Source of the DNA: Nitrospiraceae bacterium
GTDB taxonomy: Bacteria > Nitrospirota > Nitrospiria > Nitrospirales > Nitrospiraceae
Length of the DNA: 14,270 nt
NCBI GenBank assembly: GCA_050731155.1
Contig: JBOHOI010000053.1
Location: 1 to 14,270 of the forward strand
Reading direction: 5' to 3'
Translations under genes and position numbers: made by a program
Notes under the pieces: generated by a model
What the model was told of the DNA's origin: nothing
Databases searched by the model: none
The model's input: the letters and a program-made list of their open reading frames with translations, nothing else
Part shown: positions 1 through 13,447 of the stretch, in pieces
Position numbering within the stretch: position 1 is the first letter of the stretch
How the letters are laid out: every line of letters begins with the position of its first letter

Positions 1-742
1 CTATCAAATGGTCGGGCGCGGCATGCGGCTCGATGCGCCGACCGGAAAGCTCATGTTCCGCGTCTACGACTACACCGATGCCACGCGGCTCTTCGGTGAA
101 GAGTTCATCAGCAAGGCCACGCCGCCACGAAAGCGCAAGGAGGGACCAAGCCCAGAACCTCCGGAGCCGCTGGAACCCACCATTCAAGTTGAGGGGTTCG
201 ACGTCCGCGTTACCGACGCCGGGCGCTACATCGTGACGCAAGTGGACGGCAAAGCTATGCCCGTCACTGTAGAGGAATACAAGGCGCGTCTGGCAGCTAA
301 ACTCGTTGAGGAAGCCCCGACGCTGGAAAAATTCCGTGCTCGCTGGATCGCACCTGCTGAGCGTCGAGAACTCCTAGGAAACCTGCCGGACGCGGGTCGG
401 TCGCCGCTCCTGGTTCGTTCATTGGAAAACATGACCGATTACGACCTTTACGATGTGCTGGCCGAACTGGGCTACGGCCTGAATCCGCGCACCCGTCCTG
501 AGCGCGCCGACGCGTTCACGTACAAACATGCGGGTTGGTTGTCGAAATTACCACTACCTACCGCCACCACGCTCAAGGCCCTCGCCGCGCAATTTGCTCG
601 CGCCGGCACGGATGGATTGGAGAACCCACAGGTCTTTCAGACGCCCGAAGTCGTGCAGGCGGGTGGTCTGGCCGCGCTCAAAGCGCTCGGCAATCCTGCC
701 GACGTGCTGCGGGAGACTAAAGAAAGGATGTTCGCGGCGTGA
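1..742 (+). CDS. hsdR: Type I restriction enzyme R subunit (HsdR), C-terminal part; 5' end lies outside the window
   Basis: The frame is open from base 2 and reads ...YQMVGRGMRL, which is helicase motif VI (QxxGRxxR) of SF2/HsdR. It continues into a C-terminal region (…MTDYDLYDVLAELGYG…) reminiscent of the EcoEI/EcoAI-type HsdR C-terminal domain. It is followed in the same strand by hsdS and hsdM. The TGA stop at 740-742 overlaps the GTG start of the next ORF. Confidence 0.85.
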   Translation, partial: YQMVGRGMRLDAPTGKLMFRVYDYTDATRLFGEEFISKATPPRKRKEGPSPEPPEPLEPTIQVEGFDVRVTDAGRYIVTQVDGKAMPVTVEEYKARLAAKLVEEAPTLEKFRARWIAPAERRELLGNLPDAGRSPLLVRSLENMTDYDLYDVLAELGYGLNPRTRPERADAFTYKHAGWLSKLPLPTATTLKALAAQFARAGTDGLENPQVFQTPEVVQAGGLAALKALGNPADVLRETKERMFAA

Positions 743-1326
743 AGGAACAGGAGAGGTTTAAAGAACTCGATAATATAGTCCAAGAGCTTCGACATAATAT
801 TGAAGACCACCGATTTTATAAACTGTATTTCGCTCCTGATACTGATAAGTGGGACAAGTTCTGTGTTGCAATGGACACGCTGGAAGACACTGAGCTGGCT
901 TTGGCCCATTACTTCAACTATGGATTAGGCCGCAGTGATGAGGAGCGTTACCTCCGATTGTATGGAGTTCAGCAAGCCGTTTATCTACAACAAGACGCGA
1001 TTAGGGCTCTTGTTGAAGTCGTGCTTGAAAAGAAATTTGAGCCCTCTGCTGATTCTGCGTGGAGGGCAATCCGGGAAGTCCGCCGCCATATTGGTCACCC
1101 TATAGAAGTCAAGAAGGCCGGGTCGGTCCGAAGGACCTTCCTTACACGGGTCTACCTGGCTATGGGGCTTGTAGGGCTCATCACGAGGGACAGTAAAAAG
1201 GGGGAGAGCGAGCACTGGGGAGGGCAATTGGATGAGGTGTTGTTGGCTTATTTAGCTGAAGCCATTCCGATAGTTCGTGAGATCGGGGAAAGTGTCAAGA
1301 AAAGATGGCCTCTCCCTGAGGATTGA
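739..1326 (+). CDS. Hypothetical 195-aa protein embedded between hsdR and hsdS; candidate HEPN-like (R-x4-H) defence protein
   Basis: The ORF has a GTG start overlapping the hsdR stop (GTGA) and ends 1 nt before the hsdS ATG. It is markedly AT-richer than the flanking genes; a counted 60-nt sample at 761-820 was about 33% GC. It contains REVRRH/RRHIGH (R-x4-H) near residues 113-122. No recognisable enzymatic motif otherwise. Confidence 0.6.
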   Translation: MKEQERFKELDNIVQELRHNIEDHRFYKLYFAPDTDKWDKFCVAMDTLEDTELALAHYFNYGLGRSDEERYLRLYGVQQAVYLQQDAIRALVEVVLEKKFEPSADSAWRAIREVRRHIGHPIEVKKAGSVRRTFLTRVYLAMGLVGLITRDSKKGESEHWGGQLDEVLLAYLAEAIPIVREIGESVKKRWPLPED

Positions 1327-1327
1327 A

Positions 1328-2578
1328 ATGATTGCAAAAGCTTCAGGTGTAGAAACCCCACATTCGAAGCGTTCGTTGCCCGATGGCTGGCGGTGGGTGC
1401 GGCTGGGGGAGGTGTGCGAGGAACAGACTGGCACTCGTGATCCTCGTTCAGAGGCATTGAAACAGTTTCGCTATGTGGACATCACCAGTGTGGATAACCG
1501 CACGAAGCGGATGGTTGATCCCAAAACCTTAGTTGGCAGGGAGGCCCCAAGCCGGGCACGCCAAGTCATTAGGAAAAGCGACGTCCTCGTTTCGACAACA
1601 AGACCAAATCTGAACGCGGTCGCGCTGGTTCCATCTGGACTCGATGATGAAATTGCGAGCACTGGCTTCTGCGTCCTTCGGCCAAAAAGCGCCCTCAATC
1701 CCTCCTATTTATTCGGCTTTGTCCAAAGTGCGGAGTTTGTTCAATGTCTGTCGGACTTGGTCAAGGGTGCGTTGTATCCGGCGGTCACCGATAAGCAGGT
1801 TCGCGATCAATTCATACCCCTTCCACCGCTTGCCGAGCAGAAGCGCATTGCGGCGATCCTGAACGAGCAGATGGCGGTGGTGGACCGGGCGCGGGCCGCT
1901 GCCGAGGTGCAGTTGGAGGCGGCTAAGGCTCTCCCTGCCGCCTATCTTCGCGCCGTCTTCAACAGCCAAGAAGCCCGGCAGTGGCCGAGGAGAAGGCTAG
2001 GGGAGGTTTGCGAACTTTTGCCGTCCAAATCAATTGCAACAGACGGGGATGCAGAAGTCTTAGCCATCACGACAGCTTCTCTCACCGAAAGCGGGTTCGA
2101 GCCATCTGGTGTAAAACAGGCCAGAATGTGGGCCAATGATGTGACTGAGTGTGTGGTATCTCCTGGTGAAATCCTCATTGCTCGAAGTAACACACCAGAC
2201 CTCGTTGGGCGCGTCGCCATGTTTTCGGGAAATCCAAAGGAGGCGGTAGCTTCAGACCTAACAATTCGTCTTCGTGGGAATGGTGACAGAGTGAACTCGG
2301 CTTTTCTGACAGCCTATCTGTCGTTCCTCTACCTGACCGGTTATTGGAAGGAACGCGCGGGTGGAGCGAGTGGCTCCATGAAGAAAATCACGCGAACACA
2401 AATCCAAGAAGAGCGAGTTCCGGCTCCTCCTATCTCCGAGCAGGGGCGGATCGCGGCGGTCCTGAAGGAACAGATGGCGGTGGTGGAGCGGACACGTAAA
2501 GCGCTAGACGAACAACTCGACACGATCACCAAATTGCCCGCCACGCTCCTACGAATGGCATTCAACGGCGAGATCTGA
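1328..2578 (+). CDS. hsdS: Type I restriction-modification specificity subunit HsdS, with two target-recognition domains
   Basis: Two internal conserved HsdS repeats are present. The central one reads LPPLAEQKRIAAILNEQMAVVDRARAAAEVQLEAAKALPAAYLRAVFN and the distal one PAPPISEQGRIAAVLKEQMAVVERTRKALDEQLDTITKLPATLLRMAFNGEI; each follows a variable TRD. The ATG at 1328 is preceded by GAGGA. The track ORF begins at 1277, but that upstream part overlaps the preceding gene. Confidence 0.9.
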   Translation: MIAKASGVETPHSKRSLPDGWRWVRLGEVCEEQTGTRDPRSEALKQFRYVDITSVDNRTKRMVDPKTLVGREAPSRARQVIRKSDVLVSTTRPNLNAVALVPSGLDDEIASTGFCVLRPKSALNPSYLFGFVQSAEFVQCLSDLVKGALYPAVTDKQVRDQFIPLPPLAEQKRIAAILNEQMAVVDRARAAAEVQLEAAKALPAAYLRAVFNSQEARQWPRRRLGEVCELLPSKSIATDGDAEVLAITTASLTESGFEPSGVKQARMWANDVTECVVSPGEILIARSNTPDLVGRVAMFSGNPKEAVASDLTIRLRGNGDRVNSAFLTAYLSFLYLTGYWKERAGGASGSMKKITRTQIQEERVPAPPISEQGRIAAVLKEQMAVVERTRKALDEQLDTITKLPATLLRMAFNGEI

Positions 2579-2580
2579 AT

Positions 2581-3630
2581 ATGCCTCGTGGTCTCTCTGC
2601 CGAAGTCAGGACTCATCTTGAAAAGGCAATGGAATCAGCAATTCTCGCGGTCGAGGTTTATAACAAGCCAGCGACGAAGTTTCGTTCTGGTGGCTACATC
2701 GTGTTAATGACCATTGCGTGGACGGCTTTGTTTCATGCCATCTTTTTGAAACGTAGACAAAAACCTTACTACCGCAATGATCCGGATAACCCAAGGAGCC
2801 GCTACAAAAAGGTCGAAGGGGACTACAAAGCATGGGAGTTGGCAACTTGCTTAAAGAAATTCTATGGATCGAATAACCCACCTGAGCGCAAGAACTTGGA
2901 GTTCTTCGTTGGTCTTCGCAACAAAATCGAGCATCGTTCCATGCCTCAACTGGACCTCAAAATCTTTGGCGAATGTCAGGCCATGCTTTTCAATTTTGAG
3001 GATTGTCTCCTCAAGGAGTGTGGCCAGAAATACGGGCTGAATGAGAGCCTCACTATTGCCCTTCAGTTTTCCCGAATTCAGGATAGCGAGCAGGCGCGAG
3101 CAATTCGTGTGCTGCATCGTCCCCTCCATAAACACATCGAGTCGTACATTCAAACCTTCCGATCATCCTTGAGCAATGACATCGAGAGCGATCTTGCGTA
3201 TAGTTACAAGGTCTTCTTGATTCCTAAGCTGGCAGGTAATCAGGGGCAGGCAGATGTAGCGGTTGAGTTCGTTAAATTCGATCCGAGCACGCCCGACCAA
3301 ATGGAAACCTACGAGAAGATAGTCTCGCTAATAAAGCCAGCAGTGATCCAAGTCGCTAATCCAGGAAAACTTAAGGCCGGGGATGTTGCCAAAGCCGTCG
3401 CTGACGCGACCGGAAGGAAATTTACTGCAAGTAGTCATCACTCCCGTGCGTGGCGGTTCTACCGCATACGACCGCCCAATGGCGATCCCAGGCCTGAAGT
3501 AACTCAGACACAGTATTGTCAATGGGATGAAGCGCATCGGGACTATGTTTACACAGACGCTTGGAAGAAGTTCCTCATGTCTGAAATGAAAGACCCTACA
3601 AAGTACGAACACATAATGCATTCGACATAG
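2581..3630 (+). CDS. HEPN-like protein (DUF3644-like N-terminal domain with LRNKIEH motif) plus an uncharacterised ~200-aa C-terminal domain, embedded between hsdS and hsdM
   Basis: The ATG lies 2 nt after the hsdS stop. The N-terminus (AMESAILAVEVYNKPATKFRSGGYIVLMTIAWTALFHAIFLK …NLEFFVGLRNKIEHRS) matches my memory of the DUF3644 pattern (A.E.YNKP … L.ELRDN.IH). The RNKIEH stretch is a canonical HEPN R-x4-H RNase motif. AT-richer than the hsd genes; a counted 60-nt sample at 2701-2760 was about 42% GC. Confidence 0.7.
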   Translation: MPRGLSAEVRTHLEKAMESAILAVEVYNKPATKFRSGGYIVLMTIAWTALFHAIFLKRRQKPYYRNDPDNPRSRYKKVEGDYKAWELATCLKKFYGSNNPPERKNLEFFVGLRNKIEHRSMPQLDLKIFGECQAMLFNFEDCLLKECGQKYGLNESLTIALQFSRIQDSEQARAIRVLHRPLHKHIESYIQTFRSSLSNDIESDLAYSYKVFLIPKLAGNQGQADVAVEFVKFDPSTPDQMETYEKIVSLIKPAVIQVANPGKLKAGDVAKAVADATGRKFTASSHHSRAWRFYRIRPPNGDPRPEVTQTQYCQWDEAHRDYVYTDAWKKFLMSEMKDPTKYEHIMHST

Positions 3631-3674
3631 AGCCTAAGAATCAAAGAGACGCGCATGGCGAATTTGGAGAATGA

Positions 3675-5216
3675 ATGATGCCACGACCCCGCAAGGATGA
3701 AAACGCCAACGGTAGGCGCCTTGCGACCCAGCGATCCGTCAACGGCGCGATCAAGAGCATCTGCGACATCATGCGCAGGTCTAATTGCGCCGGCGCGCTG
3801 CAATATGTCCCTGAACTGACCTGGATTCTCTTCTTGCGTATCCTCGATGAGCGGGAGACTCGTGAGGCGGAGGAAGCCGAAGCAGTGGGCGCAGACTACG
3901 CACCGTCGCTGACCAAGCCGTATCGCTGGCAGGACTGGGCTGCGCCCAACGGGCCGAAGCGGAAGGAATTACAAGATGGGTCAATGGGGGCGTTCTTTGG
4001 CTTCGTCAACAGCGACTTGATCCCTCGCTTAAAGAAACTCCGTGAACAGCCCAACGCCACTTCGCGCCAAAAGGTCATCAGCGAAATCTTCTCCGGCATT
4101 GAGAAGACCCGCATCGATACCGAGCGCAATTTCCTGGATGTGTTGGATAAGGTCCACGAGATCAGCGCCGAGACCGTAGACCCCACGCATGTCTTCACTC
4201 TTTCGCAGGTGTACGAGGGGCTACTTCTCAAGATGGGCGAGAAGGGCAACGACGGGGGCCAGTTCTTTACCCCCCGCGAGATCATCCGGGCGATGGTAAA
4301 GGTGATCGACCCTAAGATCGGAGAGACGGTCTACGATCCGGGGTGTGGGACGGGGGGCTTCCTAGCACAGTCTTATGAATACATGCGCGACCGTTTGGGT
4401 GACAAGGCGACTGCTCCAGAGATTGAAACCCTTAAGCAACGAACCTTCTACGGACGCGAGAAGGATAATGCCGTCTACCCCATCGGCTTGGCCAACTTGG
4501 TCCTACACGATATTGATGAGCCACACATCTGGCACGGCAACACCTTGACCGGTGCGGAGACATACGGCGGTCTCTTCACCGGTGCCCCTGCCCTCTACGA
4601 CGTGGTGTTGATGAATCCGCCCTTCGGGGGCAAGGAAGGAAAGGATGCCCAGACACGGTTTGCCTACAAGACCGGCGCAACCCAGGTCTTGTTCCTTCAG
4701 CACGTCATCGACAGCCTCAAGCCCGGCGGGCGCTGCGGGATTGTGCAGGATGAAGGGGTGCTCTTCCGCACGAACGAGACGGCTTTCGTGCAAACCAAGC
4801 GCAAGTTGCTAGATGATTGCGACCTCCGGTGCATCGTCAGTCTTCCGGGTGGCGTCTTCACGGCGGCAGGGGCGGGTGTGAAGACGAACCTGCTCTTTTT
4901 CACGAAAGGGCGGCCCACGGAGAAGATTTGGTACTACGACCTGTCTGACATCAAGGTCGGTAAGAAGACTCCATTCACGCTAGATAAATTCGAGGAGTTC
5001 TTCCGTCTGCTCCCGACCCGTGCCGACAGCGAGCGAAGCTGGACCGTCACGCGGAAAGCGATCGAGGAGAAGAACTACGACCTCAAAGCAGTCAATCCGA
5101 ACGCCAAGAGCACTGAAGATACCCGCACCCCCGAAGAACTCTTGGATCTGATCGAAGCCAAAGGCCGCGAAGTCGCCGAAGCGCTCGCCACGCTCCGCGC
5201 CACCAGCAAGAAATAA
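3675..5216 (+). CDS. hsdM: Type I restriction-modification N6-adenine DNA methyltransferase subunit HsdM
   Basis: HsdM N-terminal domain signature (ALQYVPELTWILFLRILD). FFTPREI motif. SAM-binding motif I DPGCGTGGFL. Catalytic motif IV NPPFGG. GGAGA RBS at 3666-3670. The start could be the ATG at 3675 or 3678. Confidence 0.92.
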   Translation: MMPRPRKDENANGRRLATQRSVNGAIKSICDIMRRSNCAGALQYVPELTWILFLRILDERETREAEEAEAVGADYAPSLTKPYRWQDWAAPNGPKRKELQDGSMGAFFGFVNSDLIPRLKKLREQPNATSRQKVISEIFSGIEKTRIDTERNFLDVLDKVHEISAETVDPTHVFTLSQVYEGLLLKMGEKGNDGGQFFTPREIIRAMVKVIDPKIGETVYDPGCGTGGFLAQSYEYMRDRLGDKATAPEIETLKQRTFYGREKDNAVYPIGLANLVLHDIDEPHIWHGNTLTGAETYGGLFTGAPALYDVVLMNPPFGGKEGKDAQTRFAYKTGATQVLFLQHVIDSLKPGGRCGIVQDEGVLFRTNETAFVQTKRKLLDDCDLRCIVSLPGGVFTAAGAGVKTNLLFFTKGRPTEKIWYYDLSDIKVGKKTPFTLDKFEEFFRLLPTRADSERSWTVTRKAIEEKNYDLKAVNPNAKSTEDTRTPEELLDLIEAKGREVAEALATLRATSKK

Positions 5217-5272: not shown

Positions 5273-5311
5273 GCCGTATGGCAGCCCCCTCTGAGGGGGC
5301 TGCCATACGGC
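5273..5311 (+). terminator. 17-bp perfect GC-rich hairpin (gccgtatggcagccccc / tctga / gggggctgccatacggc) followed by a T-rich tract; probable intrinsic terminator of the hsd operon, or an operator palindrome
   Basis: Perfect inverted repeat read directly, with a 5-nt loop, 57 nt after the hsdM stop, followed by tcgttcacttatttctcttgttc. It overlaps the 5' extension of track ORF 5278, so the real start of the next gene is downstream. Confidence 0.45.
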
Positions 5312-5334
5312 TCGTTCACTTATTTCTCTTGTTC

Positions 5335-6456
5335 ATGATTCGTGAACATGGTACATTGGCGAACGCTATGAGAGGAATTGGACAGGAACCCCAGATAGTC
5401 GACTCCGCGCTGGAGCGATTGAAGAGCATTCATCCAGTCAAGGTAGTAAACCTACGCCGAGAGGTACATGTGGGAGATCGGCGTTGGGATGGCGAGGTGA
5501 CACTGAAGACTGATCGCGGCACGTTCCGTTACCTCTTTGAGGTCAAGACCAACTTGCGGCCACAGACCATACGACATCTGCTGATTCAGGCAGACGCGTA
5601 TCGCAAACAATGGGGTAAGGCTACAGGGCTTTTGCTGCTGGCCGATTACGTCAATCCCTCTTTAGGAGATCAGCTCAAAGACGCCGGCATCAATTTCATC
5701 GACACGGCAGGGAACTTGTTCTTGAAGCGGGAGCCGGGGCTGTATCTCTACGTCGAAGGGAAGAAGTCACCCGCCTCCACGAAGGAAAAGCCGACGCGGC
5801 TCTTTCAGCCAAGCGGCCTGACGTTGCTTTTCGGCTTGCTTGTTGAGCCTGAGTCCATCAACCACCCTTACAGGCATCTGTCGGAGGCAAACGGCATTGC
5901 CCTAGGAACAGTTGGTTGGGTCAAACGAGATTTACGAGAACATGGCTACCTGGAGCCCACCGGGAAGGATAGTTTTCGCCTAGTTCGTAAGAAGGACCTC
6001 TTAGATCGCTGGGTGCATGGGTACGCGAGCCGCCTCCGCCCTAAAGTTTTCCTCGGCGAGTATCGTGCCCTGTCGAATGATCTTGATACTGTCGTCAAAT
6101 CGTTCAAACAGTATGCCCTAGAACACGGCATGTCGTGGGGGGTATCAGGAGGGCTCGGTGCTGATGAGCTTGTACACCATTACCGAGGAAACACCGTCAC
6201 ACTCTTCGTCGAATCTTGGAGACACAATGAAGCTCTGAAAGAGCTGAAATGGTTGCCCGTCACAGGAGGCCCCATAACAGCCCTTAAAGGCTTTTCTCCT
6301 CGTGTCTTTCAGATGAGGGGGAAACAGGCCCGCTATCCGGTCGTGCACCCTCTCCTCATTTATGCGGAATTGCTCTATCAGGGGAGCGACCGTGCACTCG
6401 AAACGGCCCGCTTAATCTACAACGAGTTCCTGGAACCCTCCCTTGCCAAAGATTGA
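5335..6456 (+). CDS. Three-module protein: N-terminal PD-(D/E)xK-like domain, central winged helix-turn-helix (AbiEi/COG5340-like), C-terminal domain; probable regulator/antitoxin partner of the downstream nucleotidyltransferase
   Basis: The N-terminal ~150 aa carries …RRWDGEVTLKTDRGTFRYLFEVKTNL…, a D … ExK nuclease-fold pattern. The central region (LSEANGIALGTVGWVKRDLREHGYLEPTGKDSFRLVRKKDLLDRWV) looks like a wHTH. The stop overlaps the next ORF by 14 nt. The start is taken at ATG 5335, after the hairpin; ATG 5368 is an alternative. Confidence 0.55.
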   Translation: MIREHGTLANAMRGIGQEPQIVDSALERLKSIHPVKVVNLRREVHVGDRRWDGEVTLKTDRGTFRYLFEVKTNLRPQTIRHLLIQADAYRKQWGKATGLLLLADYVNPSLGDQLKDAGINFIDTAGNLFLKREPGLYLYVEGKKSPASTKEKPTRLFQPSGLTLLFGLLVEPESINHPYRHLSEANGIALGTVGWVKRDLREHGYLEPTGKDSFRLVRKKDLLDRWVHGYASRLRPKVFLGEYRALSNDLDTVVKSFKQYALEHGMSWGVSGGLGADELVHHYRGNTVTLFVESWRHNEALKELKWLPVTGGPITALKGFSPRVFQMRGKQARYPVVHPLLIYAELLYQGSDRALETARLIYNEFLEPSLAKD

Positions 6457-7240
6457 AGGCGATCTGGCAGAGGCACTGAAACTGCTCCGCAACTATTTCG
6501 AGCGGAGAGAAATATCTTTTGCACTTGTAGGCGCCCTTGTGCCAGCCCTTTTGCTTTCATCCGAAGTCGGAGCCCGAGAGACACGCGATGCGGACCATGT
6601 GATCAAGCTGGCTTCATGGGCAGAGTGGGATGCTGTGATCGCCGAACTCGTCGAATTAGGATTCAGGCGAGGGCGAGGGGAGCAAGAGCACCGATTGTAT
6701 TACAAAACTGGTGAGATTGACTTGATTCCTTATGGAGTCACAAACGGACCTGATGAAGTTCTGATTTGGCGTAAATCCGGGAACCAAATGAACATGACCG
6801 GATTCTCTGACGTATTCCGATATGCCAAACCGACGGAGGTTACGCATGGACTGACTCTTCCTGTTGTGCCGCTCTGGCTCTTTGCCGTCCTTAAGATAAT
6901 CGCCTATCTCGATCGTGAATCCCCGCGAGACCTTTCCGACCTCATCTATGTGCTGGAGCGTTATGAAACATCGGGAGAAGAGTCTCGCCGCTTTGAGGTC
7001 GCAAGTGGCGTTGATGGTGTGACGTATGAAACCTCGGGGGCGTATCTCCTGGGATGCGATGTTCGAGAAAATGCCTCAGATAAGGCCTTGGAATTGATCA
7101 AAGGATTTGTCGCTCCCATCACGGACGAGCATCACAAAGCGATCAATACAATTCTCCGAGAGGAAAACCTCCTGCAGTCTGAGGATCGAAGGCAGTCTGT
7201 GTATCGTTTAATCCAAGCCTTTCGAAAAGGATTAGCCTGA
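6443..7240 (+). CDS. Nucleotidyltransferase-fold protein (AbiEii / minimal NTase-like), probable toxin/effector of a type IV TA-like or Abi pair
   Basis: The N-terminal stretch FALVGALVPALLLSSEVGARETRDADHV fits the pol-beta NTase pattern hG[GS]-x9-13-DxD. Size, position immediately after a wHTH gene, and the overlapping start (TTG at 6443) are typical of AbiEi/AbiEii-like operons. Confidence 0.55.
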   Translation: MPKIEGDLAEALKLLRNYFERREISFALVGALVPALLLSSEVGARETRDADHVIKLASWAEWDAVIAELVELGFRRGRGEQEHRLYYKTGEIDLIPYGVTNGPDEVLIWRKSGNQMNMTGFSDVFRYAKPTEVTHGLTLPVVPLWLFAVLKIIAYLDRESPRDLSDLIYVLERYETSGEESRRFEVASGVDGVTYETSGAYLLGCDVRENASDKALELIKGFVAPITDEHHKAINTILREENLLQSEDRRQSVYRLIQAFRKGLA

Positions 7241-7320
7241 ATGCGAACAAGAAGGGACATGCTACTTTTTCCAGAAGCTTCCACACACATAAGCCGCTGG
7301 CTGGATGCCCTCTTCGAATC

Positions 7321-7345
7321 CCTCCTCCCCCGCGCCGTCCGCGCC
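7321..7345 (+). repeat. Copy 1 of intergenic motif R1 (CCTCCTCCCCCGCGCCGTCCGCGCC)
   Basis: Pyrimidine tract plus a GC mini-palindrome, read directly. A partial second copy (ctcctccccgcggc) lies at 7366-7379. Confidence 0.6.
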
Positions 7346-7514
7346 TCACCCTTGACTCCTCCCCGCGGCTGGCCTCGCCGGTTTTTTCCTCCGGTCCTTC
7401 ACGCGCGGTGTTCACGCCCCTGCGCAGGGCCGGGCAGCTCGCGGCCCAAAAGCCGCCTTCACGCCCCCAACATCTCTGGACACGCTGCTCAGCCAGGAGT
7501 CGGCCAGAAGCATC

Positions 7515-7543
7515 TTGACAAGAACCGAGGAAAGAGCTACTAA
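7515..7543 (+). promoter_or_regulatory. Candidate sigma70-type promoter upstream of the SWIB gene (TTGACA, 17-nt spacer, TACTAA)
   Basis: Perfect -35 hexamer TTGACA at 7515-7520. The -10 hexamer TACTAA matches the TATAAT consensus only 3 of 6, after a 17-nt spacer. Lies about 150 nt upstream of ATG 7691. Confidence 0.25.
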
Positions 7544-7690
7544 CAGGCACTTGTTGGGGCTCCTTGAGGGCGTGAGGGCCGCCCACGCCACAAGGCACGT
7601 CCTAGCACCTCACCGTAGTTATCGTTCACACACAGCAGCGAGACGCCGCAAAACAATGTAGCCTCACGCTGCGAACCTTGAGGAGGGAAA

Positions 7691-7948
7691 ATGGCAAGAA
7701 AAATGAACAACACATTCATGAAACCTGTAAACCCGTCTCGTGATTTGGCAGAAGTGGTGGGAAGCAAAGCTCTTCCGCGAACAGAGGTGACCAAAAAGCT
7801 TTGGGCGTACATCAAAAGGCATAAGCTCCAGGATTCCAAAAACAGACGCAACATCAACGCTGACGACACATTGAGGAAAGTATTTGGCGGCAAGAGAACG
7901 GTCAATATGTTTGAGATGACCAAGCTCGTCAGCAAGCACCTGAAATAA
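7691..7948 (+). CDS. SWIB/MDM2-domain protein (85 aa)
   Basis: Sequence …LAEVVGSKALPRTEVTKKLWAYIKRHKLQDSKNRRNINADDTLRKVFGGKRTVNMFEMTKLVSKHL is a textbook bacterial SWIB-domain sequence. AGGAGGG RBS directly upstream. Confidence 0.85.
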   Translation: MARKMNNTFMKPVNPSRDLAEVVGSKALPRTEVTKKLWAYIKRHKLQDSKNRRNINADDTLRKVFGGKRTVNMFEMTKLVSKHLK

Positions 7949-7989
7949 CCAGAACATTCCCCCTCGTTCGGCGCCTCAGTCAGAACGTT

Positions 7990-8008
7990 CGGGGCCCACG
8001 GGCCCCGT
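7990..8008. terminator. Short perfect GC hairpin (cggggccc acg gggccccg) 42 nt downstream of the SWIB gene; possible terminator
   Basis: 8-bp stem with a 3-nt loop, read directly. There is no clear U-tract on either strand. Confidence 0.3.
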
Positions 8009-8125
8009 GCTGTCTTGCCGAGGCGCCGTGTCATGTCCAGGCGGGACCACCAGGCCGCTGAACGATACCGTGGTGCCACGCGATCATCGGCCGATTCCAT
8101 CCCGAGCCACGATGATGGGACTCGC

Positions 8126-8141
8126 CCTCCTCCCCCGCGCC
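8126..8141 (+). repeat. Copy 2 of R1 (CCTCCTCCCCCGCGCC)
   Basis: Identical 16-mer core in the convergent intergenic space between the SWIB gene and the - strand gene. Confidence 0.6.
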
Positions 8142-8224
8142 CTCAAAAGTGAGTTACGAACAAGCCTGGCAGGGGAACCCCGCCGCTTGATGCTCTCTGG
8201 ACGCGAGGCTTGCGAAGCATCCTC

Positions 8225-8659
8225 TCAGTCGCCTCCTTTGAACGCATCCCGGTCGTATTCCTCGCCGACGTCATCATGTTCCTGGATTCCCAGAGCGCTG
8301 AGGAACGACACTCGCAAGGCTCGGACTTGCGTGAGGCTCCGGCGGTCAGCTTTTTCCGCTCCGGCCAGAAACCGGTCGCAGAGTTTCAGGCCTTGCTGAA
8401 AGTGTTCGGCGATCGGGTCTTCGGCGGCTTGCTGCCAGGTACTATAAATGAGGAATTCCTGGAAGGCGCGGGCGGTAGGGTAGTGCTCGCCGAGCGTCAG
8501 GAGCTGGCGGTACGCCTGCGCGGCTTCGTCCCCGGCGCTCGCAGAGAAGGCGGCCTCCCATTCGGCAGCCGATGCACCATCAGCGCCCAGCTCGTTGCGC
8601 GTCTGCGAGAGCTGGAATGCGGTGTGGGCGGCGACGGCTGGGTCGAACGAGAGATCCAT
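8225..8659 (-). CDS. Hypothetical protein (~144 aa from ATG 8659; a GTG at 8746 would give 173 aa)
   Basis: In the - strand frame, third-codon positions are strongly G/C-biased (GCC, GTC, CAC, ACC …), which in a high-GC genome is the signature of a real gene. AAGGGAG lies upstream of ATG 8659. The overlapping + strand ORF 8210..8824 lacks this bias. Confidence 0.55.
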   Translation of the reverse strand: MDLSFDPAVAAHTAFQLSQTRNELGADGASAAEWEAAFSASAGDEAAQAYRQLLTLGEHYPTARAFQEFLIYSTWQQAAEDPIAEHFQQGLKLCDRFLAGAEKADRRSLTQVRALRVSFLSALGIQEHDDVGEEYDRDAFKGGD

Positions 8660-8972
8660 TATCCCGTCTTTTACTCCCTTCCGCACACTTTCCGCAATTC
8701 CGTCTTCGCGCGTTGGAGTAGGCGCTTGTCTTTGGCACTGAGCCACCTGCGCTTAACAGACAAGTCTGGGTTCCCGCTCTTGACACCTCCCTTTGGACAG
8801 CCTAGCTTTGCTTCTGCTGACTGATTCCTCAGACCATCCATTGGTTCCTCTTCAAGATCTGGAGCGGATGGCCCTGTTGTCGGAGCGGAAGGAGCCGCGG
8901 GAGGTTCAGCGGGAGGGACTGGAGAGGAAAGGGCTGCTGCCAAAGGACAAACGCTTTCGTCATGAGTGAGCT

Positions 8973-9362
8973 GTGCCTCCACTCGATCTGACGTGCCCAT
9001 CTTGTGGGACCGAACGGACCCAACGCCTGAATCTCCTGCGGCGGTTTTATGGTGACGGTGGTTTTGTTGGGCACGCGTTTCTCTCCGAAGGGCTTGAACG
9101 CCCTCACCAGCCGTGGGGATTTACGGCTGGCTTTCTTGTCGGGCTTCTCCTCGGTGCCATCTCGTATGTGATCCTTCCCGAGGCGTACCAGCTCTTCTCA
9201 GTACTGCCCCTGGTCCTGGGTTGGCTGGGCGTTGGGGTCAGGGCTCGGATGAAATACCATGACAAGCGGGCGAAGTGGGAGAGCGCCCTCGACCAGTACT
9301 TCATGTGCCTGCGATGTGGGGACGTCTTTCGCCCCCGCAAACAAAGGCCCGACGTTCCATGA
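8973..9362 (+). CDS. Small zinc-ribbon membrane protein (CPSCG … CLRCG flanking two hydrophobic helices)
   Basis: GTG start. Two CxxC pairs at the N- and C-termini bracket hydrophobic segments (FTAGFLVGLLLGAISYVIL, LFSVLPLVLGWLGVGV). Confidence 0.45.
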   Translation: MPPLDLTCPSCGTERTQRLNLLRRFYGDGGFVGHAFLSEGLERPHQPWGFTAGFLVGLLLGAISYVILPEAYQLFSVLPLVLGWLGVGVRARMKYHDKRAKWESALDQYFMCLRCGDVFRPRKQRPDVP

Positions 9363-9387
9363 CTCAGAAGCTCTCCTCATCGCGTAA

Positions 9388-9540
9388 GAAGAAAAGGCGG
9401 GGTCAGGTCTGGCCATCACGCACCGGCTTGCCCGCGACAAAGCCAGCCTCGACATCTTCTGGTTCAAGGACGAGTCCCTCAAAGAGTCCGACAATCTCCA
9501 CGGCGCGCTGGAACAGTTTGAGGCGATCCAAGCAGATTGA
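9388..9540 (+). pseudogene. hsdM: Remnant of the C-terminal ~50 codons of a second, different-family type I hsdM gene
   Basis: A 51-codon open frame reads …ITHRLARDKASLDIFWFKDESLKESDNLHGALEQFEAIQAD*. The (A/R)xKxxLDIFWLKDESL…DNL…ALEQF pattern is, from memory, the conserved extreme C-terminus of EcoKI-type HsdM proteins. The intact hsdM at 3675-5216 ends quite differently. No upstream hsdM body is present. Confidence 0.45.
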
Positions 9541-9581
9541 GCCGACACGTACATGCTGAACGCTGATGGAGATCCTCTTCG

Positions 9582-10028
9582 ATGAATCTTCGCGCCGCCC
9601 TGATCTTCCTCGTCCTCGGATTCATCGGCCTGTTGATCGTGATGGGGACGGCCAGTTTCGTTCGGTGGCTGAAGATTTCCTACCCTCGGTCCTTCCGCTC
9701 GATTCTAGTTGTGCTCTGCCTCTTGATGGTGGGTGCCGGGGTCTGGGTCTACATGGAAGCGAAGGAGCGACCAGTGTTCCACGCGGGCGATCTCGTCACG
9801 CTCGAGGAGCCGGTGGTTGCCAGAGTCATCCCTGCAGGTCGCAGCGCGCCCGCGACAAGCTGTATTGTGGAGATTTACGAGCATCTCTCGGTGGTGGACG
9901 TTCAAACCGGAACCATGACGGCGCGCGTCGAGAGCAACAATCGATCCGGTCCGAGCTACTGTCCAATCGGCGCTGACGTGCACATCGAGCTGGCCTGGCT
10001 TCACCGCTATACTCTCACGCACCGGTAG
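9582..10028 (+). CDS. Hypothetical membrane protein (two predicted TM helices at the N-terminus)
   Basis: ATG with a GGAGA RBS 9 nt upstream. Strong GC3 bias (CTT CGC GCC GCC CTG ATC TTC CTC GTC CTC …). Hydrophobic stretches LIFLVLGFIGLLIVMG and ILVVLCLLMVGAGVWVY. Confidence 0.6.
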   Translation: MNLRAALIFLVLGFIGLLIVMGTASFVRWLKISYPRSFRSILVVLCLLMVGAGVWVYMEAKERPVFHAGDLVTLEEPVVARVIPAGRSAPATSCIVEIYEHLSVVDVQTGTMTARVESNNRSGPSYCPIGADVHIELAWLHRYTLTHR

Positions 10029-10031
10029 TCC

Positions 10032-10058
10032 TGACCCCGATCCATCGCGACAACCCGA
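10032..10058 (+). repeat. Repeat R3, copy A (TGACCCCGATCCATCGCGACAACCCGA)
   Basis: A 27-nt segment that recurs at 12105-12132 with 2 mismatches. Same orientation. Confidence 0.55.
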
Positions 10059-10121
10059 CGACGCCCTTCCGGCCGCTGGACCACTCGCTTGACCGCCGTC
10101 GGTAAACGAGCCCTTTCGCTC

Positions 10122-10145
10122 CCTCGTCCCCCGCGCCTCCCGCAG
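10122..10145 (+). repeat. Copy 3 of R1 (CCTCGTCCCCCGCGCCTCCCGCAG)
   Basis: One mismatch in the core. Lies 89 nt downstream of repeat R3 and about 200 nt upstream of the SPFH gene. Confidence 0.55.
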
Positions 10146-10350
10146 AGCATTCTGACTGGACGGAAAAGCGTTGCCGTGCCAGGAGGCGGCGGTCGCCGGT
10201 CACCAGATCATTCGCGTCCGCGCCGTCTTCACCGCTCACACTCCGCTAGACATCGCGTGCTGTCTCGTGTAACGTTCTCCCGGCATTTCTCTCATCGCTT
10301 GTCTGCTCCATTGCCTTCACCCCCAGGTCGCCCGGGATAAGGAGGTCACC

Positions 10351-11214
10351 GTGTCCATCGAATTGGCGGTCGCAGTCGTGGCAGTTGTGGTCCTGTTAGT
10401 CGCCACCATCAAGATCGTCCCGGAATATCAGCGCATCGTCGTCCTCCGTCTGGGCAAAGTCCTCCCACGGCCGAAGGGGCCGGGCCTTGTTCTCATCATT
10501 CCGGTCATCGATCGGCCCATTTGGGTGGACCTCCGTGAGACGTATCTCGAGGTCCCGCACCAGACCTGCATCACGAAGGACAATGCGCCGATCTCCATCG
10601 ACTTTCTCATCTATTCGAAAGTCCTCGACCCAACCTCCAGCGTGGTCCAGGTCCAAGACTTCGCCGGGGCTTCTCAGGGGATTGCCACCACGACTCTCCG
10701 GGCGGTTGTGGGTGACATCCCGCTCGATGATGTGTTGGCCAAGCGCGATCAGATCAACCACCTCTTACAAGCAAGAATGGACGAGGTGACCCAACGCTGG
10801 GGGGTGAAGATCACGACGGTTGAGATTCGGGAAATTACGCCGCCGAAAGAGGTCCAGGAAGCGATGACGCGTCAGATGTCCGCCGAGCGGAGCCGGCGGG
10901 CCACGGTCACCGAGGCAGAAGGGGCTAAGCAGGCGGCCGTGACGGTGGCCGAGGGTGATAAACAGGCGGCGATCCTGAAAGCTGAAGGGGACCGCCAGGC
11001 GGCGAGCTTGCGGGCGGAAGGGTTTGCTCTTGCCCTGAGAAAGATCTTTGAGGCGGCCAAGGAGGTGGACTCGAAAACCATGAGCCTGCAATACCTTGAG
11101 ACCTTGAAGGTCATGGGTACCAGCCCCTCCACCAAATTCATCTTCCCGATGGAGTTCAGCTCTTTCCTGGCCGGCTTGTTGGGAGACAGTAAGAAGGCAT
11201 TCGGTAAAGAGTGA
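10351..11214 (+). CDS. SPFH/band-7 (stomatin/prohibitin-like, HflK/C family) membrane protein
   Basis: N-terminal TM helix followed by the band-7 core (IVPEYQRIVVLRLGKV…DLRETYLEVPHQTCITKDNAPISIDFLIYSKVLDP…) and a C-terminal coiled coil with A/E/Q-rich heptads. GTG start preceded by AAGGAGGT. Confidence 0.9.
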   Translation: MSIELAVAVVAVVVLLVATIKIVPEYQRIVVLRLGKVLPRPKGPGLVLIIPVIDRPIWVDLRETYLEVPHQTCITKDNAPISIDFLIYSKVLDPTSSVVQVQDFAGASQGIATTTLRAVVGDIPLDDVLAKRDQINHLLQARMDEVTQRWGVKITTVEIREITPPKEVQEAMTRQMSAERSRRATVTEAEGAKQAAVTVAEGDKQAAILKAEGDRQAASLRAEGFALALRKIFEAAKEVDSKTMSLQYLETLKVMGTSPSTKFIFPMEFSSFLAGLLGDSKKAFGKE

Positions 11215-11247
11215 ACGTCAGCCGCCGGCTGCGGCCCTCTTCCACTC

Positions 11248-11290
11248 CCTCCTCCCCCGCGCCTTCCGCGGCGCATTCTTGTGATTCGCA
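11248..11290 (+). repeat. Copy 4 of R1, extended form (CCTCCTCCCCCGCGCCTTCCGCGGCGCATTCTTGTGATTCGCACC)
   Basis: The core plus a conserved 3' extension (CCTTCCGCGG … ATT.TTGTGATTC) shared with copies 5 and 6. Lies about 80 nt upstream of the DUF433 gene. Confidence 0.6.
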
Positions 11291-11937: not shown

Positions 11938-11980
11938 CCTCTCTAGTGACCGCATCCGGTTGAATGGAATTGTTTCTTCC

Positions 11981-12027
11981 CCTCCTTCCCCGCGCCTTCC
12001 CCATGTGTGATTCTCTCGTCACGTCAG
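11981..12027 (+). repeat. Copy 5 of R1, extended form (CCTCCTTCCCCGCGCCTTCCCCATGTGTGATTCTCTCGTC…)
   Basis: The core has one substitution. The extension is …TGTGATTCTC. Lies in convergent intergenic space, followed by R2 and R3. Confidence 0.55.
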
Positions 12028-12056: not shown

Positions 12057-12683
12057 TCACGACGTGCGCGCGGTGGGCTGTCCATGCCAGGGCAGCAGGG
12101 AATAAGTTGACCCCGATCCATCGTTACAACCCGATTCGGGTCTGCCCACTGCCTGGATAGGGGACTCAACTGCCTGGCGGGCTTGGTTGAGGGACTTGAC
12201 CATGTCCACGAGTCGCGCTCGCCCTTCCTCGGAGATTTCGGTGAACCGTACACCCATTCCGGGAGAGAACCTGTATTGGTCGGCTTTCGGGCAAACCCAC
12301 GCGACGGTCCCCTTCGCTCCCAGCCATTCAGAGGGATAGTCAGGGAGCGCAACCTCCATCATCAGTTTGGTCCCGACCGGAAGCGGGTCGTTGCTTTCAA
12401 TAAAAAGCCCTTCATCCCCACCCCCTGAAGGCCGGCTCTCGAACCAGTGACCGTCAGGCGTACGGTAGCGGACATTCAGAACGAGGAAGTCCATCAACTC
12501 AGTGCGCAGACCCTCTGGTTGATTCTGGGCGCGTAAGCCCAGGATCAGGTCAATCACAGATCCCCAGGGCACGGTGCCCATTTGCGCGCCCCCCACGCCG
12601 AGCAGCCGAATGGTTTCACGCTCGTGGTCCAGCTCCAGCAATTTTCCCTTATGTGCCTTGGTGGCAGTGACTGGCAGCTTCAT
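12057..12683 (-). CDS. PilZ-like domain protein (TIGR02266-type C-terminal domain, possibly degenerate), 208 aa
   Basis: The C-terminal half (…LVLNVRYRTPDGHWF…GGGDEGLFIESNDPLPVGTKLMMEVALPD…GTVAWVCP…GMGVRFTEISEEGRARLVDMV) parallels the PilZ-like TIGR02266 pattern (RVPV…GGGLFV…PLPVGT.V.L.L.LP…G.VVWV…PGMGIQF.DL.EEAR.RL). ATG at 12683 with a GGAGGA RBS. The last ~15 codons read into repeat R2. Confidence 0.55.
   Translation of the reverse strand: MKLPVTATKAHKGKLLELDHERETIRLLGVGGAQMGTVPWGSVIDLILGLRAQNQPEGLRTELMDFLVLNVRYRTPDGHWFESRPSGGGDEGLFIESNDPLPVGTKLMMEVALPDYPSEWLGAKGTVAWVCPKADQYRFSPGMGVRFTEISEEGRARLVDMVKSLNQARQAVESPIQAVGRPESGCNDGSGSTYSLLPWHGQPTARTS
12062..12104 (+). repeat. Repeat R2, copy A (GTGCGCGCGGTGGGCTGTCCATGCCAGGGCAGCAGGGAATAAG)
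   Basis: A 43-nt segment that recurs at 13319-13361 with 2 mismatches, read directly. Both copies create the spurious peptide …LLPWHGQPTART in - strand ORFs. Confidence 0.65.
12105..12132 (+). repeat. Repeat R3, copy B
   Basis: Immediately follows R2 copy A, suggesting R2, R3 and R1 are parts of one composite element. Confidence 0.55.
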
Positions 12684-12941: not shown

Positions 12942-13318
12942 GTCAATCCGTTCAATGCCACAAGTGAGGTATCCCCCCCTCAAAAGAGGTACTCGTAGAG
13001 GAAGTCCAGCGCGACCATTTTCAAGGGGGCTCGCTCAAGGACTAAGATCTTCTCTTGTACCTTGAACTAGGATTTTGGCGAGGAGGATAGCAATTGAGAG
13101 GTTGAGAGGCTTGCGCTCATGAGGGAGTTACCCTGGTCCCGGTTCCACTCCCGATTTTTGTCCTGATTCAGAATCTAACTCGGTCGCAATTGGGCGCAAG
13201 AAAACTGGCCTAAGGCCTTGTTTTCATTGCTTCGGCGTAGTAGTCCTTCGCTGTTGATCGTCATTGGTCGCAGAGTCCTCGGGCGCTCTGCAAAACTGCG
13301 ACGCAACAGTGCGCGCGG

Positions 13319-13361
13319 TGGGCTGTCCATGCCAGGGCAGCAGGAAGTAAGCCGCTGGGCA
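13319..13361 (+). repeat. Repeat R2, copy B
   Basis: See copy A. Same orientation, 1.25 kb away. Confidence 0.65.
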
Positions 13362-13400: not shown

Positions 13401-13447
13401 CCTCCTCCCCCCGCGCCTTCCGCGGGGAATTGTGAGGTCTCTGTCCG
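13401..13447 (+). repeat. Copy 6 of R1, extended form (CCTCCTCCCCCCGCGCCTTCCGCGGGGAATTGTGAGGTCTCTGTCC)
   Basis: The core contains a 7-bp hairpin, ccccgcg / ccttc / cgcgggg. Lies about 220 nt upstream of the phosphatase gene and is preceded by R2. Confidence 0.6.

Follow-up and report, generated by a model that had tools for sequence, protein, structure and literature searches.

A probable relic of an EcoKI-tail hsdM gene upstream of tm148 in a Nitrospiraceae contig

The window, by which we mean the whole stretch of 14,270 nucleotides analysed here, is part of a contig from a Nitrospiraceae MAG. At 9427-9537 it carries what is very probably a non-functional relic of the 3' end of an hsdM gene of the EcoKI-tail family (Table 1). 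We regard the relic as non-functional because it lacks a start codon, a catalytic body and any hsdS or hsdR of its own family, because it has undergone a 42-nt deletion, and because the last 4-8 codons are gone.

Table 1. Features of the window that bear on the origin of the relic
Feature	Position	Strand	Description	Evidence
Resident hsdM	3675-5216	+	Intact, 513 aa	Pfam N6_Mtase and HsdM_N
Zn129	8973-9362	+	129 aa; two CxxC pairs, hydrophobic segments; conserved in L097	No Pfam match
Left junction DNA between Zn129 block and relic	9353-9426	+	Holds TAA 9385-9387	
Probable hsdM-derived relic	9427-9537	+	37 codons, 111 nt, LARDKASLDIFWFKDESLKESDNL/HGALEQFEAIQAD	blastn, tblastn, profile HMM
Deletion scar	9496-9501	+	42-nt (14-codon) in-frame loss, junction 9498/9499	Offset shift, 14-column protein gap, codon alignment
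Early stop	9538-9540	+	TGA, 4-8 codons before the stop of relatives (which go on QADL-xxx)	Codon alignment
Right junction DNA between relic and tm148 block	9541-9559	+	Replaces the REP-like hairpin of relatives	
tm148	9582-10028	+	Conserved Nitrospiraceae membrane protein, 148 aa	

The relic lies within the frame 9388-9540, which runs from stop to stop, comprises 50 sense codons and translates as EEKAGSGLAITHRLARDKASLDIFWFKDESLKESDNLHGALEQFEAIQAD up to the closing TGA; the upstream in-frame stop is the TAA in the left junction DNA. This translation is identical to that given in an earlier reading of the same DNA from its letters alone (the first-pass annotation). Neither ATG, GTG nor TTG occurs among the 50 codons, and the frame is therefore not an ORF. 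The gene calls of the NCBI contig that equals window 5327-10516 (L001) place nothing between the 129-aa zinc-ribbon ORF, which ends where the first-pass annotation had put its end, and the 148-aa ORF. Homology to hsdM could be demonstrated for the relic only, the first 13 codons of the frame having no detectable similarity to hsdM. Possible resemblances to the left of 9427 ('PTFHDSE' to 'PTWSDKN' and 'EEKAGSG' to 'SEKNPDG') were discarded, as they were borne out by neither the DNA search nor the profile HMM; part of this would-be hsdM stretch is the conserved 3' end of Zn129 in another frame. Two overlapping ORFs, at 9275-9559 on the plus strand and 9198-9554 on the minus strand, were judged to be spurious, since they have no Pfam match and span both the junction and the conserved end of Zn129.

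A search of 5.8 billion proteins with the relic peptide returned 11 matches with E values from 6e-6 to 3e-3, several of which carry the JGI name 'type I restriction enzyme M protein' and whose consensus reads ...RDKASLDIFWLKDESLEDSDNLPDPxVIAAEIVEDLRAALEQFEAIxxDL... The relic matches the tail family RDKASLDIFWLKDESL...ALEQFEAI. The first half and the last third of the tail motif, RDKxSLDIxWLKDxS...NLPxPxV..EI...L..AL.QF, are present in the relic, and the middle 14 residues are deleted. When the 490-aa HsdM of Gemmobacter was used as a tblastn query, residues 440-486 matched 9427-9525 (E = 3e-5). The similarity to HsdM C-termini proposed in the first-pass annotation was in this way borne out. 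At the DNA level, blastn showed the relic to be 82-91% identical to five independent hsdM tails (those of L016, L010, L007 and L003, with duplicates), in alignments that start at 9426-9432 and extend to about 9537. A profile HMM built from 68 tails aligned its core to 9415-9525 with a score of 43.5 bits and did not support homology farther upstream. That the likeness of so short a frame to an HsdM tail arose by chance might be suggested by the length of the peptide, which by itself matched nothing in PDB even at E <= 10 (phmmer, 50 aa). The E value of 6e-6 among 5.8 billion sequences, the profile score and the DNA identity to five tails, all with the same 42-nt shift in offset, rule this out for practical purposes, and we assign it a negligible probability.

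The link between the relic and EcoKI is only transitive, because the peptide alone misses PDB and it is P0005, a complete relative of the relic, that reaches EcoKI. P0005 aligned without gaps to residues 443-507 of EcoKI HsdM (E = 1.2e-8), and the same PDB search matched it to a Bacteroides HsdM, 2okc. On EcoKI numbering, as transferred through the P0005 alignment, the relic corresponds to residues of about 456-479 plus 494-506. It shares with the C-terminal domain of EcoKI HsdM (type IA; residues of about 443-529; PDB 2AR0 and 2Y7C) the motif series SLDI-WLKD ... LP-PDV-A-E ... AL---. In contrast to EcoKI HsdM, its 37 codons lack a start codon, the N-terminal and catalytic domains, the equivalents of 480-493 and everything past about 506. 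The statement in the first-pass annotation that the frame reproduces the extreme C-terminus of EcoKI-like HsdM proteins thus holds for the resemblance, via P0005, but not for the extremity itself, as the relic is internally deleted and its end is lost.

The tail profile matched 5139 representative proteins at E <= 0.001. In the longer tail-bearing proteins the C-terminal half of N6_Mtase stands directly ahead of the tail, and matches on plasmids fall under genes annotated as 'class I SAM-dependent DNA methyltransferase', 'N-6 DNA methylase' or 'type I R-M subunit M'. Full-length HsdM proteins with this tail have at least 490 residues, the N6_Mtase domain and partner hsdS and hsdR genes, whereas the relic is tail only; the tail sequence is what it has in common with complete operons such as those of Gemmobacter aquarius and L016. 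In the former (plasmid protein WP_108437603.1, the 490-aa HsdM) the order is hsdR-hsdS-DUF262-hsdM, and in operons of the type hsdR-hsdS-x-hsdM, where hsdM comes last, its 3' end forms the distal edge of the system. We also considered that the tail might define a family of small proteins, since the word-indexed search gave only short proteins and the profile search mostly short ones. This was rejected: a library of representatives at 50% identity enriches odd fragments, the N-termini of the short proteins are chimeric or truncated, and 88% of unbiased loci are intact.

Within the relic, all blastn comparisons, those with L003, L007 and L010 among them, showed a jump of exactly 42 nt in the alignment offset near 9488-9505. 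The residues removed are PDPxVIAAEIVEDL, and in the codon alignment the deletion falls between the short repeats DNL (GAC AAT CTC) and EDL (GAx GAy CTC), slippage between which would account for the loss. The 'HG' of the relic stands for the 'RA' of the tail family after three substitutions. At the right-hand end the window reads GAT TGA where L007 reads GAT CTG GGT GGG CGG GCC TAG, and relatives run on past GAT with CTG and three to seven further codons. As the change from GAT CTG to GAT TGA would need three substitutions, a break is the simpler account, and the hsdM-derived DNA probably ends on the right at a break point 9537/9538.

[quoted passage not shown] The 42-nt deletion takes the first half of the HsdS-binding helix. 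That the fragment nevertheless yields a functional small product, either a mimic of the HsdM tail competing for the coiled coil of HsdS, in anti-restriction or in the control of assembly, or a regulatory 5' leader of tm148, seems to us highly improbable. The tail is indeed an HsdS-binding module (PMC2647291), many short, mostly-tail ORFs are called as genes in public data, and the relic ends 41 nt before the start codon of tm148. Against these stand the frame devoid of ATG, GTG and TTG, the helix halved by the 14-codon deletion, and a resident HsdM and HsdS that come from another family with an unrelated tail. Moreover, relatives carry a REP-like hairpin before tm148 and not the relic sequence, the short ORFs found elsewhere have the varied, chimeric N-termini that are typical of deletion products, and the region 9200-9700 was free of Rfam matches and of promoter-like and terminator-like sites. 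No tRNA genes were found near the relic either, and together these empty searches point to neither an att site nor an RNA element.

The first-pass annotation had noted that no hsdM body precedes the fragment, and this stands. Tblastn with the full-length Gemmobacter HsdM found no pieces of an hsdM body in the window other than the resident hsdM (residues 10-423 of the query; body matches at 3750-5045), and the N6_Mtase catalytic domain (PF02384, with AdoMet-binding and NPPF motifs) was absent upstream of the relic. Nor is there an hsdS or hsdR of the relic's own family beside it, the flanking genes being Zn129 and tm148. The resident HsdM matched 5ybb_A over its full length (residues 18-505, E = 8e-93), its match to EcoKI M was confined to the catalytic core at 177-446, and the relic peptide matched it with an E value of 1.8. 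By these alignments the resident hsdM is of another family and its tail is unrelated, as the first-pass annotation had it, and it would not be the source of the relic. An exact-protein look-up of the resident HsdM gave no record. By Pfam, the window opens inside an hsdR, of which the C-terminal part (EcoEI_R_C) is present, and continues with a 195-aa ORF, hsdS, a DUF3644 gene, hsdM, AbiEi and AbiEii; the window has no hsdS or hsdR other than those of this 5ybb-like system at 8-5216.

Some features of the resident operon were recorded in passing. The 195-aa ORF (739-1326), between hsdR and hsdS, has no Pfam match and overlaps the start of hsdS, and the DUF3644 gene (2581-3630) is interposed between hsdS and hsdM. 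GC content dips to 0.46-0.52 over 600-3400, and next after the operon comes the AbiEi/AbiEii pair. At 5273-5311, 57 nt past the end of hsdM, two 19-nt arms separated by 1 nt (GCCGTATGGCAGCCCCCTC and GAGGGGGCTGCCATACGGC) form a perfect inverted repeat that overlaps the ATG called for AbiEi (5278). The repeat could serve as an operator or a terminator, and the start of AbiEi may have been mis-called.

The DNA around the relic was compared with related loci, all of which, like the window, are metagenome assemblies. Homology to L097 ended at 9352, within the last codons of Zn129, and homology to L095, L096, L097, L098 and L102-L104 resumed at 9559/9560; 9353-9559 is for this reason a novel junction of 207 nt. 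Judged by these alignments, it joins two conserved blocks, SWIB-m144-Zn129 on the left and tm148-SPFH on the right. Between the window and L097 4096-4494, Zn129 shows 94.5% DNA identity and 90% protein identity. The Zn129 ORF takes its final codons and its stop from the left junction DNA, which showed no similarity to hsdM by DNA search or profile. On the right, an alignment of upstream regions showed that a REP-like hairpin (...CCCTCCTCCCCCGCGCCTTCCGCGGGGA...TTGACCACGCTGATGG) stands ahead of tm148 in L095-L098 and is missing there in the window. The junction was present in three records, the window, L001 and L002, which possibly come from one sample. As for tm148, 136 homologues were found at 50-93% identity, and where NCBI names the source organism it is always a Nitrospiraceae or Nitrospira; tm148 is a lineage-conserved gene and not island cargo. 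The third codon positions of the relic (GC3 0.76) resemble those of its neighbours tm148 and SPFH (0.75).

The tm148 protein, which has no Pfam match and is confined to Nitrospiraceae, has two hydrophobic helices and, after them, a C-terminal part rich in beta structure. Its gene adjoins an SPFH/Band_7 gene in the window (SPFH at 10351-11214) and in four of the nine relatives with enough flanking sequence (L097, L099, L100 and L101, on either side); L095, L096 and L102 have no adjoining Band_7 gene. It may be an unrecognised NfeD-like partner.

Gene order around tm148 varies among relatives. The window has the order ...AbiEii-SWIB-m144(-)-Zn129-[relic]-tm148-SPFH-...-PilZ(-)-LMW phosphatase. 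In L097, whose SPFH is 97.6% identical, it is tm148-PilZ-SPFH-SWIB-m144(-)-PilZ-Zn129-bactofilin. L099, L100 and L101, with SPFH directly upstream of tm148, have SWIB-m144(-)-ParE/Phd(-)-SPFH-tm148-PilZ(-)-LMW phosphatase. Upstream of tm148, L095 carries SIMPL, PIN, GmrSD and a transposase, and L096 carries RHH-PemK, HicA and IS110. The slot upstream of tm148 is a hot spot of rearrangement and insertion, with toxin-antitoxin and defence cargo that varies by relative, in keeping with the variable hot spot that the first-pass annotation had supposed.

Several further observations concern this region. The genes of window 7700-11230 (SWIB, m144, Zn129, tm148, SPFH and PilZ) occur in at least three orders among close relatives (L097, L099, L100 and L101; SPFH 92-98% identical), with ParE/Phd, PemK, HicA, PIN and DUF2283 cassettes interspersed among the shuffled genes. 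A dispersed repeat with the core CCCTCCTCCCCCGCGCC(T)TCCGCGG(GG), which forms a GC hairpin, occurs in a single orientation at 7307-7354, 8125-8145, 10108-10155, 11234-11281, 11980-12000 and 13401-13435; further positions are 12064-12106 / 13309-13351 and 10032-10058 / 12108-12134. The repeats lie just past gene ends and at the borders of shuffled blocks, and are found also in L014, L095, L096, L097 and L098. They may be REP-like elements that mediate the rearrangements. The possibility that the CCCTCCTCCCCCGCGCC repeats are integron attC sites was rejected by eye, as the GTTRRRY/RYYYAAC ends are lacking. In L095, the 94 nt that open the tm148 block, made up of 22 nt of upstream DNA and 24 codons, occur twice, at 4013-4106 and 6055-6148, and the two copies bracket a 2-kb insert with PIN, a 62-aa ORF and SIMPL. 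This looks like the target duplication or att-like repeat of an inserted element.

The frequency of comparable relics was assessed by scanning metagenome contigs with an alignment of the complete tail. This yielded 80 loci, of which 49 were evaluable, that is, had at least 1400 nt upstream of the tail. A full HsdM body was present in 43 of these and an intact one was lacking in six (12%). The break points differ among the six: they lie at query residues 322 (L135), 391 (L140) and 329 (L178), L154 is fragmented from 109, L173 shows none, and in L183 residues 1-173 are fused near the tail. Three further orphan tails were verified, two of them (L003 and L010) within defence islands: L003 (P0005) lies among PIN_4, HEPN_Toprim_N, a Bil-like operon and AAA_15, L010 (P0003) follows a BREX-like cluster and MNT-HepT, and L007 (P0007) stands alone among housekeeping-type and unannotated genes. 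All nine have, as does the relic, a tail without an intact body. Most other orphan tails are still complete and have a start codon ahead of them, and hence are called as small genes, whereas the relic is more decayed. The relic is thus an ordinary gene scrap, and about one in eight tail-bearing places is like it.

Streptococcal ICEs with triplets of serine integrases insert in hsdM and disrupt it (PMC4701971). With this precedent, and with a window that begins inside hsdR so that the far left is unseen, the relic could be taken for one half of an hsdM split by the site-specific insertion of a mobile element, with the 5' half outside the window on the left and the gene restorable by excision. 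The two cases are alike in that pieces of hsdM are parted from the gene by other DNA. We nonetheless consider the reading very unlikely. The relic has both ends damaged and, given its own 42-nt deletion and lost 3' end, excision could not restore the gene; it has no recombinase beside it, and no recombinase domain was found among the large window ORFs that were scanned. It is flanked by core-like genes, and those to its left (Zn129, m144 and SWIB) are conserved in Nitrospiraceae relatives without hsdM and are not element cargo. Finally, the relics of other loci do not break at one att-like position, and their scattered break points argue against a site-specific mechanism, ICE integration included.

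The first-pass annotation had read the fragment as the remnant of a second hsdM, left when an older R-M system was deleted or overwritten at the site. The identification as an orphan remnant of the EcoKI-tail family stands, but a former system at the site was not confirmed. It had also proposed a comparison with syntenic regions for an intact hsdMSR at this position, and none was seen in relatives anchored on tm148 or on SPFH. No hsdM of any kind was found at the slot in ten tm148-bearing Nitrospiraceae loci (L095-L104), and neither the tail nor an EcoKI-tail hsdM occurred within about 10 kb in these or in any of seven SPFH-anchored relatives (L013-L015 and L017-L020). More broadly, the 80 SPFH-anchored loci of the genome scan and the ten tm148 contexts held no intact system at the same slot. 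Among relatives of the lineage, only L016, a more distant Nitrospirota MAG with an 85% identical SPFH, has an EcoKI-tail hsdM-hsdS-hsdR. That system, whose hsdM is frameshifted, is encoded on the minus strand and sits 1.5 kb downstream of SPFH, on the opposite side of SPFH and in the opposite orientation with respect to the relic. L016 is also the best DNA match of the relic (91% over 66 nt). This identity says little about the donor, because the 66 nt encode a strongly conserved motif and unrelated metagenome tails are 82-90% identical over the same stretch.

The type I system of L016 (12341-20563, minus strand) is split over several frames, and two extra copies of the HsdM N-terminus are present at 14598-14687 and 15242-15367. 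The broken frames and copies could be frameshift errors of long-read sequencing or real decay and duplication.

We give slightly better than even odds to decay of the relic in situ, from an EcoKI-tail type I system at this site; as no hsdM of this family occupies the slot in the ten relatives, decay at the site is a matter that we infer. Under this reading, a type I system of the EcoKI-tail family would have occupied, or passed through, the variable slot upstream of tm148, and successive deletions and rearrangements would have stripped all but the scrap. One deletion end point may have been the REP-like hairpin that normally precedes tm148, and the 42-nt loss may have come about through slippage between the DNL and EDL codon repeats. 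The resident 5ybb-like hsdR-hsdS-hsdM system and the AbiE island upstream would be an independent acquisition. Break points on both sides of the 207-nt piece mean that the scrap could just as well have been broken before it came here, whether carried in on foreign DNA or taken up as filler when the Zn129 and tm148 blocks were joined, in which case no type I system of the EcoKI-tail family ever worked at the site. The lack of such an hsdM in the ten tm148-bearing relatives and near SPFH in seven more agrees with an arrival in this state, and so does the share of tail-only relics among evaluable loci, from which broken donor copies would be plentiful. Neither the GC3 of the relic, which matches that of the neighbouring core genes and is compatible with long residence as well as with a similarly composed donor, nor the EcoKI-tail hsdM beside SPFH in the Nitrospirota locus L016 decides against it. 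On balance we hold arrival of a broken copy to be possible but rather unlikely.

Decay in situ and arrival in a broken state alike imply that the Nitrospiraceae lineage or a DNA donor once carried an EcoKI-tail type I system besides the resident 5ybb-like one. The relic marks a rearrangement junction in a highly plastic part of the chromosome that is rich in toxin-antitoxin and defence genes. For annotation, 9427-9537 should be labelled as a pseudogene fragment, neither a gene nor a second R-M system. The share of relics among tails, about 12%, provides a rough gauge of type I turnover in environmental genomes. By itself the relic is of very little consequence, being one more case of a common type of scar.

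Because tail DNA is 82-91% identical over about 50-70 nt across distant taxa, the tail-coding end of EcoKI-type hsdM is conceivable as a candidate one-sided anchor for homology-facilitated illegitimate recombination in cassette swaps, and could on that account preferentially survive the loss of a system. We think this quite improbable. If it were so, tail-only scars and fusions of an HsdR N-terminus to an HsdM tail would be a recurrent signature of type I turnover, and the window copy would be one old example, for which the idea is unlikely to matter. More remotely, some complete tail-only ORFs could be putative HsdS-binding decoys.

Fusions to the tail were seen among short public ORFs. Judged from motifs by eye, P0043, P0087 and P0090 have the N-terminus of HsdR fused to the tail, and P0030, P0045, P0059, P0077 and P0147 have internal or N-terminal HsdM motifs in that position; the fusion point lies just ahead of the stretch Y-D-E-L-x-x-R-D-K. 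As these ORFs join distant parts of a type I operon to the tail, they suggest large internal deletions of whole systems that retained it. P0063 (422 aa) unites in one ORF a ResIII/helicase N-terminal part of the HsdR type with the second, C-terminal half of N6_Mtase and the tail, and could be either another deletion fusion or an assembly chimera.
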